Positions 13,608 to 61,088 of a stretch of DNA of 64,000 nt are shown here, one piece after another (position 1 is the stretch's first letter; the number at the start of each line of letters is the position of its first letter). Under the pieces are notes generated by a model, which saw nothing but the letters and a program-made list of their open reading frames with translations, was not told the DNA's origin and made no database searches. A program made the translations under genes and the position numbers. Where the stretch lies: the NCBI GenBank assembly GCA_951406725.2, contig OX597814.1:144708001-144772000 (forward strand), in the 5' to 3' direction. The stretch is from Octopus vulgaris (lineage: Eukaryota).

Positions 13608-13938
13608 ATAATTGTAGGTGCCCCAGGTATGATAAAAAAGGGACGTCAGAAGTATCTAGATAAGATCCCAGGAGAACCATTTCTCAGAGAAATCCAAAAG
13701 ATTGTACTGACAAGTGCTGCCCACATCCTTAGAAAAACCTATCCATTTAAATGTCTGTGTTATATTATATGAGGATATTTCGTTACTGCCTCTGCCACTT
13801 CCCCTCCCCAAGCTTTCAGTCTGTGTTGTATTAGATGAAAAATTTCGCTACTTCCTCTCCCAAAGCTTTCAGTCATAATGTAACGTCTCTTATTTTTCAC
13901 TCGCAAATGACTGTGACAAACATGCAAATCAAAAGTAA
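13608..13938 (+). mobile_element. R4/Dong 3'-end fragment with 3' UTR, followed by (TAA)n
   Basis: IVGAPGMIKKGRQKYLDKIPGEPFLREIQKIVLTSAAHILRK; homologous to 52838-53640(-). Confidence 0.75.
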
Positions 13939-47735: not shown

Positions 47736-47874
47736 AGAAAGTTGATTTGTGAAAGCACGTGGTTGAATATATAGAAAATAGTAAAAAGTGAAAAAACTAC
47801 AGAAGGCTTGTTTTAAAAGGTTAAAAAATATATATTTGAGTCAATATGTCTGCAGAATGTTATAAATTTTTTTC

Positions 47875-49366
47875 AGAGATGACTTAGATATGTTAAACCA
47901 CCTTCCCAAAAAAGCCAAGGAAGAAACAATCATGGTTTCATTTGATGTAGTTAACTTATATACCAGTATACCTCATAATTATGGACTAGAGGCAATACAG
48001 TTCTGGCTGGACCAATTTCCGGAAGAAATACCAAAAAGGATCAGTAAAGTATTCATTACTAAATCAGTTGAATTCATTCTACATAATAACCACTTCATGT
48101 TTGACAATACATTTTACCGTCAAAAATCCGGAATTGCTATGGGTACAAGGGCAGCACCAGTCATTGCGAACCTAACAATGGGCTACCTGGAAATAATCAT
48201 TTACCAGGAATCTTTATCAATCTTTGGAAACCCCTCTCTCAATACATAAAAGAGAATTGGAAACGATTCCTGGACGATTGTTTTATACTCTGGAATGGAA
48301 ACACAGATAAACTCCTAAAATTTAAAAACCTATTGAACAGCATAAACCCAAATATACAGTTCACAATGGAATACAACCAAAAGGAGTTCCCATTCTTGGA
48401 TATACTAATTAAAAAAATTAACCTTAAAATAGAAACAGACATTTTTTACAAAGCCATAGACGCCAAACAATACCTTCTTTTTAATTCATGCCACCCAAGA
48501 CACAATAAAACAAACATCTTCAACCTTGCAAGAAGGATATGCGCAATAGTGTCAGAACAAAATACCAGGAACTTTAGACTGCAAGAACTCAAAAACACCC
48601 TAATTGACAGACATTACCCAGCTCAACTCATAGAAATCAACTCATAGACGTGCAACAGAAATCAACATAGAAACTTTAAGAAAAGTTCAACACAACAACA
48701 CACCTTCCCCGAAAATACTACCTTACATATCTACATACAACCCCAGAAACAAAGAAGCCTTCACCATCATCACCCAGAATTTACCAATACTTCATAAGGA
48801 CCCCAAATTAAAGGAAATTCTAAACATACACCAAATCATTAAAAGCTACAAACAACCTAAATCACTTAAAAAGATTCTCACAAAGGCAAAATTGTTTTCT
48901 GAAATTACGGATGCAAAAGTAAAAAAAAATGTGGTAGACCGAACTGTGCAACATGTCCAAACCTGCTAGAAGGATCAGAATTCCTCTTCAAAGAGGGACA
49001 GAAATTCAAGATCAAATCTAATTTTACTTGTGCCTCTGAAAACATAATTTATGTCATAAAATGCTCGGGCTGCACCATAACTACGTGGGGTCCACGGAAC
49101 TATCACTCAGAAGTAGATGCACACTGCATCGACAACAGATTGCATTCCCAGAATACAGAATGATACCCTTTAGTGAGCACATTGAGAAATGCGCAAAGCA
49201 ACTACTACCACAATTTCTAATCTTTCCATTCTACCAATGTGCCATCGGAACACCAACACAAATTAGACTAAACAAGGAAACATTCTTCATTGAAAAATAC
49301 AAGCCCAAACTTAACCATTCCAACATACTTATACAGAGAAACTTAGTCCAAAAGAAAGGCAAATAA
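47875..49366 (+). pseudogene. Frameshifted PLE ORF: reverse transcriptase + GIY-YIG endonuclease
   Basis: VSFDVVNLYTSIP, YRQKSGIAMGT, WKRFLDDCF, PFLDILI, SCHP, CGRPNCATC, FTCASENIIYVIKC, NYVGST, ETFFIEKYKPKLN; several frameshifts. Confidence 0.92.
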
Positions 49367-49443
49367 TTTTAAGCGATTATCTCCCTTACACCGGAAGAAA
49401 TCACTTATTACCTGATCTCCGCTCAATGTAAACATAACGATTT

Positions 49444-49483
49444 AAGAAATTTGAAAAGCTGTACGCGAAACCGGTTATTTCTT
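49444..49483 (+). ncRNA. Minimal type-I hammerhead ribozyme in the PLE 3' pLTR (U3-A8 core)
   Basis: aagaaat-TTGAAAA-gc(tgtac)gc-GAAA-ccgg-TT-atttctt: 7-bp stem I, 2-bp stem II, palindromic stem III, GUU site. Confidence 0.75.
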
Positions 49484-49600
49484 CTAAACTATGTCATTGT
49501 ATGAAAAATTTATAACATTCTTCAGACATATTGACTCAAATATATATTTTTTAACCTTTTAAAACAAGCCTTATGTAGTTTTTTCACTTTTTACTATTTT

Positions 49601-49650
<50 letters not shown>

Positions 49651-52578: not shown

Positions 52579-52759
52579 AGGCGGCGAGCTGGCAGAGTCG
52601 TTAGCGCATCGCTACGTTTTGAGTTCAAATTCCGCCGAAGTCGACTTTACCTTTCATCTTTTCGGAGTCGATAAAATAAGTACCAATTGTACACATGGGT
52701 CGATGTAATCGACTCTTCCCCTTCCTCCAAATTGCTGCTCTTATGGCAAAATTTGAAAC

Positions 52760-52762
<3 letters not shown>
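52578..52762 (+). mobile_element. SINE A between (CTT)n and (ATT)n
   Basis: ggcggcgagctggcagagtcg head; tail aaatttgaaacc(att)n. Confidence 0.85.
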
Positions 52763-52802
<40 letters not shown>

Positions 52803-52996
52803 GTTGTTGTTGTTGTTGTTGTTATTATTATTATTATCATTTTTTAATTTTAATTTTTGTTACAATCACTTGCCGAGACACACCCAGTGAAGGATAAGAG
52901 ATGTTACACAGTTCTATATTCAAGAGATGAGGAATTATGTACATTATTTACATTATTAACATTTGGTGGATATTTGTCCTCATATTGTCTGTTGTT

Positions 52997-53042
52997 AACA
53001 CAACGTTTCGGCCGATATACCATCCAGCCTTCATCAGGTATC
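52997..53042 (-). ncRNA. Type-I hammerhead ribozyme
   Basis: Minus strand gatac-CTGATGA-A-ggctgg(atggtata)tcggcc-GAAA-CG-TT-gtgtt. Confidence 0.8.
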
Positions 53043-53091
53043 TTGGGGAATTTCGAACATGGGTTCTCATTCGTACGGTATTTTACTCCAA

Positions 53092-53137
53092 GATACCTGA
53101 TGAAGTCTGGAGGGTATATCTGCCGAAACGTTGCGTT
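53092..53137 (+). ncRNA. Type-I hammerhead ribozyme (slightly decayed copy)
   Basis: gatac-CTGATGA-A-gtctgg(agggtata)tctgcc-GAAA-CG-TT-gcgtt. Confidence 0.7.
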
Positions 53138-53645
53138 AGCAACAAACGAGATGAGGACAAATATCCGTCAAATGTAAATAGTGTAAATAATGAAGAGATG
53201 TTACAGTTTGACTGAAAGCTTGGGGAGGAGAAGTGGCAGGGACAGTAGCGAAATATCTTTATGTAATATTACACAGACATTTAAATTGATAGGGTTTTTC
53301 TAAGGATGTGGTCAGTACTTGTCAGCAAAATCTTTTGGATTTCTGTGAGACATGGTTCTCCTGGGATCTTATCTAGATGTTTCTGACATTCCTTTTTTTT
53401 TTTTATCATACCTAGGTGCTCCTACAATAACAAGAACAGTTCTCGCTTTAAGATGCTACATCTTTTGTATTTCAATTTCCAGCTCCTTATATTCACTTAA
53501 TTTGTCAAATTCCTTTACAGATCTATTTTTATCAGAGGAGGCACTTACATCTATTAGTCTACAAGTATTTTCTTCCCAGTCTTTAATAATTATGTCTGGT
53601 CGTTTAGCCTGGGTCATTCTGTTGACTGGAAAATCTCAGTATCAC

Positions 53646-60039: not shown

Positions 60040-61088
<1,049 letters not shown>

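Follow-up and report, generated by a model that had tools for sequence, protein, structure and literature searches.

The 284-bp hairpin at 52909–53192 is one of thousands of variably shortened, head-to-head end pieces of a coding Penelope-like element (PLE). By sequence, both of its arms are pseudo-LTR (pLTR) pieces of an element that encodes a reverse transcriptase (RT) and a GIY-YIG-type endonuclease. It is very probably a single, dead insertion of two 5′-truncated pLTR pieces in head-to-head order, made by priming on both target strands and by microhomology joining. The hairpin is thus the ordinary footprint of an abundant PLE, and this explains the abundance of paired opposite-strand hammerheads across the genome. 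The thousands of two-armed insertions form a natural record of the way in which both target strands are used by Penelope enzymes. Opposite-strand hammerhead pairs that probably derive from truncated PLEs are already described in the available text of PMC4209133. The unusual point is a tRNA-like promoter sequence at the start of the end repeat of the parent, which may be in use and is not part of the focal copy.

Target site, hairpin and hammerheads

The insertion splits the 3′ untranslated region (UTR) of an abundant non-LTR element within the window, the 64,000-nt stretch of Octopus vulgaris DNA that was analysed. The host element is taken to be R4/Dong-like from a C-terminal motif, and Pfam gave no family for the end of its open reading frame (ORF). 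The flanking sequence AAGAGATGTTACA, of 13 bp, is identical at 52896–52908 and 53193–53205. The empty site is found in a paralog at 13.9 kb of the window and in 19 of 19 genomic host paralogs, which carry the 13-mer, or a variant of it that differs by 1–2 nt, once (2578 candidates in the paralog search, 40 scored). The left flank continues from the 13-mer in 18 of these 19 paralogs above the score cut, and the 19th shares its last 11 nt. The exact repeat and the empty site bear out the preliminary description, which had proposed a discrete 284-bp insertion by retrotransposition with a 13-bp target site duplication (TSD). Just left of the insertion (52856–52895), the host element has lost about 14 nt relative to its paralogs. 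The (ATT)n end of the host is directly adjoined on its left by an abundant SINE-like repeat of tRNA type (52580–52760), which has several paralogs elsewhere in the window.

Features of the focal insertion and its flanks (positions in the window)
Feature	Position	Strand	Remark
3′ UTR of the host non-LTR element on the distal side of the insertion	52856–52895	-	Continuous with the right flank in paralogs
Left TSD copy (13 bp)	52896–52908	+	Once at the empty site in 19/19 host paralogs
Tail-bearing arm, 3′-most ~178 nt of the parent pLTR; surplus length forms the hairpin loop	52909–53086	-	
Penelope "tail", 33 nt, one-sided; continues into the ORF body in the parent	52909–52941	-	
Minimal type I hammerhead; stem I (5 bp) and stem II (6 bp) intact; putative cut after 53002	52997–53042	-	
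Parent ORF start codon (MRTQVRNFPKTP...), within the hairpin loop	53068–53070	-	From sequence; open frame in L281
Inverted arm without tail, 5′-truncated ~140 nt from the pLTR 3′ end	53088–53192	+	
Second hammerhead of minimal form; intact core, with stem II mismatched at two positions and stem I at one	53092–53137	+	
Right TSD copy	53193–53205	+	Exact repeat of the left 13-mer
Host non-LTR 3′ UTR and broken ORF end	53206–53640	-	87% to 13611–13821

The inverted arms (52942–53046 and 53088–53192) are long, as first described, and measure 105 nt each, not 107 bp. They are 89% complementary and enclose a spacer of 41 nt. The hairpin RNA has a predicted minimum free energy of −156.7 kcal/mol (z = −18.8), which is equalled by none of 200 shuffles. 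This predicted fold agrees with the earlier proposal that read-through of either strand forms long double-stranded RNA. The exact loop junction is present in contigs of three DNA-like public runs (assembled contigs, mostly of guessed type) and is therefore not an assembly artefact. In the public contigs, the summed depth of the loop lies about 30–260-fold below that of the lower adjoining arm bin, which indicates many copies of the arms but not of the junction.

The hammerhead cores, CTGATGA...GAAA, are located at 53097–53128 (+) and 53037–53006 (−) with C-GTT after each, and the GUU ends fall at 53132 (+) and 53002 (−), where they had been placed before. Both hammerheads are minimal forms that lack stem III; in the minus-strand hammerhead it is replaced by a palindromic AACGUU. 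The plus-strand hammerhead is likely dead, to judge from its letters. Rfam, searched at the gathering threshold and at E ≤ 10, gave neither a hammerhead nor a tRNA family, whether in the window element or in the tRNA-like head of longer copies. The matches obtained were microRNA models on hairpins and simple repeats. The available text of PMC4209133 describes the minimal hammerheads of metazoan PLEs as type I, without stem III and with palindromic 15.2–16.2, an unpaired base before stem II and a 5-bp stem I, all of which resemble the focal pair. Monomers of such hammerheads did not cleave in vitro in that account. The same source (Cervera and de la Pena 2014) reports dual minimal hammerheads on opposite strands of Schistosoma DNA, 100–700 bp apart, which are probably truncated PLEs. 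In comparison with the pairs in that text, the focal cores are just ~60 nt apart and belong to another genome.

A transcript in either direction was first proposed to include one sense hammerhead. The sense hammerhead is present in each, and in the head-to-head order the antisense arm is transcribed ahead of it in both directions. The ribozyme stems have a predicted probability of 0.00 both in nascent transcripts and in the complete hairpin, and stem II reaches about 0.9 in the isolated minus arm. The duplex is predicted to block both focal hammerheads. Across the copies, 79 of 184 arms pass a test of core and stems, and 13 of 83 copies pass it with both arms.

The coding parent and the survey of its end pieces

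A BLAST search of the octopus genome with the hairpin gave 5526 candidates, of which 40 were scored, nearly all of full length. When 26 distinct loci were aligned, the left end was fixed and the right end stopped about 33 nt before a perfect palindrome would have been complete, while the content and the orientation of the loop varied between copies. Other copies extend upstream into an (AAT)n run, then into the tRNA-like head and then into coding sequence. The near-complete parent copy L121 comprises an inverted pLTR, a short direct pLTR, a broken ORF and a final pLTR with the tail. Its RT matches PF00078 over the cut-off. The C-terminus has GIY-YIG-type and CCHH-type residues that were seen by eye, and Pfam called no GIY-YIG domain in it. 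Of the 120 homologs listed, one bears the name GIY-YIG endonuclease, and an octopus protein is the closest of the named ones in the list.

The connection between arms and coding sequence is found at both ends of the ORF. Arm sequence lies within ~350 nt downstream in 27 of 29 other loci that were found by their endonuclease end, and pLTR sequence stands directly 5′ of the ORF body in at least 16 of 30 loci. In L281, an open frame runs from the ATG of the pLTR through the hammerhead and the tail into the ORF body. Read against this frame, the focal hairpin corresponds to codons 1 to ~55 of the parent ORF, and the hammerheads are, as their letters read, inherited coding sequence of that ORF. The "protein-free ribozyme unit" of the preliminary description is not supported, since the arms elsewhere run on into the tRNA-like head and an ORF for RT and GIY-YIG. 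The arms differ from the majority base at about 5% of positions, so the family is not very young.

The traits found are those of EN+ PLEs: RT followed by GIY-YIG, pLTRs on both sides of the ORF, an inverted truncated copy, a one-sided tail of 33 nt, a TSD of variable length, and a minimal hammerhead in the pLTR. The domain order of the parent fits the Penelope/Poseidon clade, and a PDB search did not discriminate. No cryo-EM structure of a PLE turned up in the literature searched. In the accessible parts of PMC3846280 and bioRxiv 10.1101/2021.04.23.441226, the scheme for Adineta Pen2a and EN+ PLEs likewise has a 5′-truncated copy with an adjacent, inverted truncated copy, a tail of 30–40 nt at one end, a TSD of 8–15 bp, and a pLTR that holds the first ORF codons and has a short palindrome at its 5′ end. 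In contrast to Pen2a as given in the available text of PMC3846280, the focal pieces are too short to keep the ORF body, and the octopus parent pLTR begins with a tRNA-like head with A and B boxes in place of TATA/Inr motifs. Poseidon PAc of the green anole (Frangieh et al. 2024, PMC11167929, as far as its accessible text goes) resembles the octopus parent in having RT and then GIY-YIG, a hammerhead that overlaps the ORF start, and a tail inside the 5′ ORF. The same text reports no tRNA-like head for PAc, unlike the octopus parent.

The window holds a second, broken Penelope-type element with RT and endonuclease at 47767–49608 (+), with an RVT_1 match (E = 7e-5) under the cut-off, 105-nt inverted ends (97%) and flanking TA runs. 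It was rejected as the parent, as it has no DNA match with the hairpin.

The BLAST-ranked set is biased to the length of the query and mimics a family of fixed length. A tail-anchored sample, blind to the junction, was used instead; it comprises 90 loci from among the first 100 tail matches listed for contig 1. An adjacent inverted piece is present in 61 of the 90 loci and extends to within 70 nt of the 3′ end in 51. These 51 head-to-head copies are 146–1058 bp long, with a single one at 270–300 bp, and have 50 distinct fold points (pairs of arm lengths). The independent family with common 284-bp boundaries that was first proposed is contradicted by these fold points, and such variation is the result that the proposal itself had named as speaking against it. 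MITE-like copies with shared ends and a single internal junction are likewise not what is observed: beside the 50 fold points in 51 copies, the focal-type junction in its majority form has 6 exact genomic matches, compared with 3519 for the unjoined 28-mer past the loop and 3866 for the fixed end. The inverted arm ends 25–45 nt before the end of the tail in 48 of the 51 copies. The tail arm is the longer one in 22 copies and the inverted arm in 21, and both are equal in 8. An exact TSD of 8–15 bp flanks 24 of the 51, and a simple exact search found none in 21.

Animal non-LTR retrozymes, as described in the accessible text of Li, Clavereau and Pollet (bioRxiv 10.64898/2026.07.22.740005), are also non-coding, hammerhead-bearing and related to PLE pLTRs. 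They are head-to-tail tandems with hammerheads on one strand, whereas the focal copy is head-to-head, belongs to a set of variable length and has a coding parent. Head-to-tail units with same-strand hammerheads, which define retrozymes, are thus absent from the focal pair.

Three short hairpins (C1:200384199, C7:94487648 and C7:94570744) have the same hammerhead stems and other sequence upstream of stem I. Their sequence assigns them to a related PLE family with the same structure.

RNA templates and the tRNA-like head

Two subfamily haplotypes (in L006, L010 and others) are distinguished by a pair of linked sites, 126 nt and 57 nt away from the 3′ end. The two arms of each copy were compared in 103 pairs, which cover all loci fetched to that point and are not a random sample. 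Rare variants common to both arms of a copy number 25, compared with 7.1 in shuffles. The subfamily site agrees between the arms in 74 of 81 copies (16 with both minor, 58 with both major). Both arms usually come from one source. Point mutation would account for 1.6 discordant copies, and seven were counted. In two of these seven the arms differ at both linked sites; one resembles a point mutation, and four are ambiguous. A hand count over 50 of the 89 loci listed gave 7 with both minor, 6 discordant, 35 with both major and 2 others. There are hints here that a minority of insertions come from two RNA templates, and site-specific mutation or gene conversion could also produce such copies.

The tRNA-like head is about 75 nt long and contains A and B boxes that are spaced as in a tRNA. 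It is present in longer copies only and absent from the focal copy. In L052, L053, L077, L099 and others, the ORF stop is followed directly by the head and then by the (AAT)n run, and a short natural palindrome spans the 5′ edge of the head. The head aligns to the genome's own tRNAs, with Arg-TCT (z = 6.9; 0 of 500 shuffles) and a second one (z = 6.8) as the best two of 11. ARAGORN found 0 tRNA genes in seven head-bearing loci. A separate locus, L196 (C12:25267077-25270148), has seven tRNA-Cys-like genes in 3 kb, two of them with altered anticodons.

Arms that reach the head mostly end at its 5′ edge (50 of 66), which amounts to 2.8 ends per 100 nt compared with ~0.3 elsewhere, or about ninefold the background truncation. 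Six of 30 head-anchored loci run into the ORF. The other 24, two of which look like one duplicated locus, match the parent for just 0–7 nt upstream of the head, and none stop at 8–44 nt. Exact genomic matches number 1395 for a 25-mer of the head and 443 for a 25-mer upstream of it. All three results would also suit a separate tRNA-headed SINE that supplied the arms and borrowed the Penelope enzyme. Such a SINE is unlikely, because the head directly follows the ORF stop in coding copies (the 6 of 30), lies upstream of the ORF start in L278 and L293, and is the 5′ end of the parent pLTR. The stop is explained by run-off at the 5′ end of the parent RNA. A search for sequence specific to a SINE gave none, and the whole unit with the head is the parent pLTR.

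With the arms drawn from the parent, their stops 0–7 nt upstream of the head most likely mark the start of the RNA, at the place where a pre-tRNA would start. An RT that stalled at the head, or at the short palindrome belonging to it, would stop in the same place.

The sense strand of L121 (2628 nt) contains no TTTT, where 3.8 to 4.4 would be expected (P = 0.023 and 0.003), and the other Penelope remnant of the window has seven in 1465 nt of its sense strand. Each TTTT position occurs in at most 3 of ~26 copies. Two further TTTT counts were set aside. The absence of TTTT in the ~270-nt pLTR is uninformative as a signal (P ~0.5). The depletion over copies (28 compared with 95 expected) is not independent evidence, since GGGG is equally depleted (23 compared with 66) and the copies come from one source and include four duplicate rows.

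Transcription of the parent by polymerase III is suggested by these sequence features. It is tentatively proposed, as a possible and rather doubtful reading, that polymerase III reads the coding PLE along its full length, from a captured promoter of tRNA type at the start of its pLTR, and that a minority of its head-to-head insertions come from two different RNAs. Insertions from two RNAs are what a dimeric enzyme that primes on both strands would allow. If the head is a working promoter, the parent would be a protein-coding retrotransposon that is read by polymerase III. No description of such an element was found in the literature searched, and subscription journals, supplements, Repbase and Dfam lie outside that scope.

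Small-RNA-gene-like sequences occur in other mobile elements. Sm-alpha of Schistosoma, which is non-autonomous, joins such a sequence to a hammerhead. Helenus and Ajax, non-autonomous LTR elements, have one in their terminal repeat, according to the available text of PMC10886601. Unlike in Helenus and Ajax as given there, the octopus head lies in the terminal repeat of a PLE that codes for RT and endonuclease, and the focal copy does not reach it.

Proposed priming on both strands and its alternatives

In the preferred mechanism, the element enzyme would cut both target strands 13 bp apart, and each cut strand would prime reverse transcription, from two start sites that lie 33 nt apart within the RNA. 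Priming at the distal site would give the tail arm, and priming at the proximal site on the other strand would give the arm without a tail. Both cDNAs would run toward the RNA 5′ end, and their short ends would be joined by microhomology. The scheme is carried over by analogy from the lizard element. The enzyme of anole Poseidon cuts and extends both target strands, two RT start sites bound the tail, and the enzyme requires the ORF RNA over its first 172 nt, as reported in the accessible text of PMC11167929. Priming on each target strand and a pair of start sites are thus shown there for PAc, and the octopus element would share them. The focal copy lacks the downstream ORF RNA that the anole enzyme requires and would therefore be unable to remobilise as a unit.

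Pure snap-back would always make the tail arm the longer one, which is not seen; the even split between the arms fits two primings. A snap-back of a few nucleotides at the pLTR 5′ end is common in full-length arms, which indicates that self-priming occurs too. Snap-back of this kind is proposed in the available text of PMC3846280.

The final shape would be the same if a longer palindrome had lost its centre after insertion. The focal copy would then have inserted as a PLE palindrome of ~550 bp, whose centre was removed by cruciform processing or slippage. Palindrome centres are unstable, long near-perfect palindromes of the focal family exist, and a deletion leaves either arm longer and uses microhomology, as is observed. 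Loss of the centre is nevertheless distinctly unlikely. In the 29 loci that lack an inverted arm next to the tail arm, the tail arms show the same range of truncation (47–1132 nt), so that 5′ truncation alone explains the short arms. In addition, the short junction is found in three other DNA-like runs, with no longer allele among the pieces (contigs) listed.

Two-strand priming with microhomology joining, as preferred here, is consistent with the junctions of the short hairpins, of which 29 of 33 have an overlap of 1–5 nt. The focal-type junction is the commonest one among short hairpins, being present in 4 of 26 BLAST-ranked loci besides the focal copy. As the (177,145) junction it recurs in 11 of 33 loci, 6 of these 11 having been picked by that junction. 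A microhomology of 4 nt underlies it, its long arm can be on either side of the tail, and both subfamily haplotypes contain it. L009 and L022 have tails at both ends, and the private changes of the focal copy and of L009 are absent from other copies.

A double-hammerhead hairpin that moves as a protein-free unit of its own would account for the many near-full-length BLAST matches with the same outer ends and for the recurrent junction, and the double-tailed L009 and L022 could in principle template either polarity, but this is scarcely credible, as BLAST ranks by length match and the tail-anchored sample forms a continuum, the common junction lies on microhomology in both polarities and both haplotypes, the private changes are not shared with other copies, and both hammerheads seldom pass the stem test and are predicted not to fold within the hairpin. 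The recurrence of the focal junction is explained by microhomology, and limited re-transposition would explain it too.

The window has a further head-to-head structure at 60040–60985, a near-perfect palindrome of ~950 bp with arm blocks that are 92–100% complementary and a 15-nt centre. It contains divergent hammerhead-like cores at 60242–60277 (−) and 60750–60785 (+), each with a palindromic GUAC loop. It looks like a younger head-to-head PLE insertion, the sequence of which is unrelated to the focal family.
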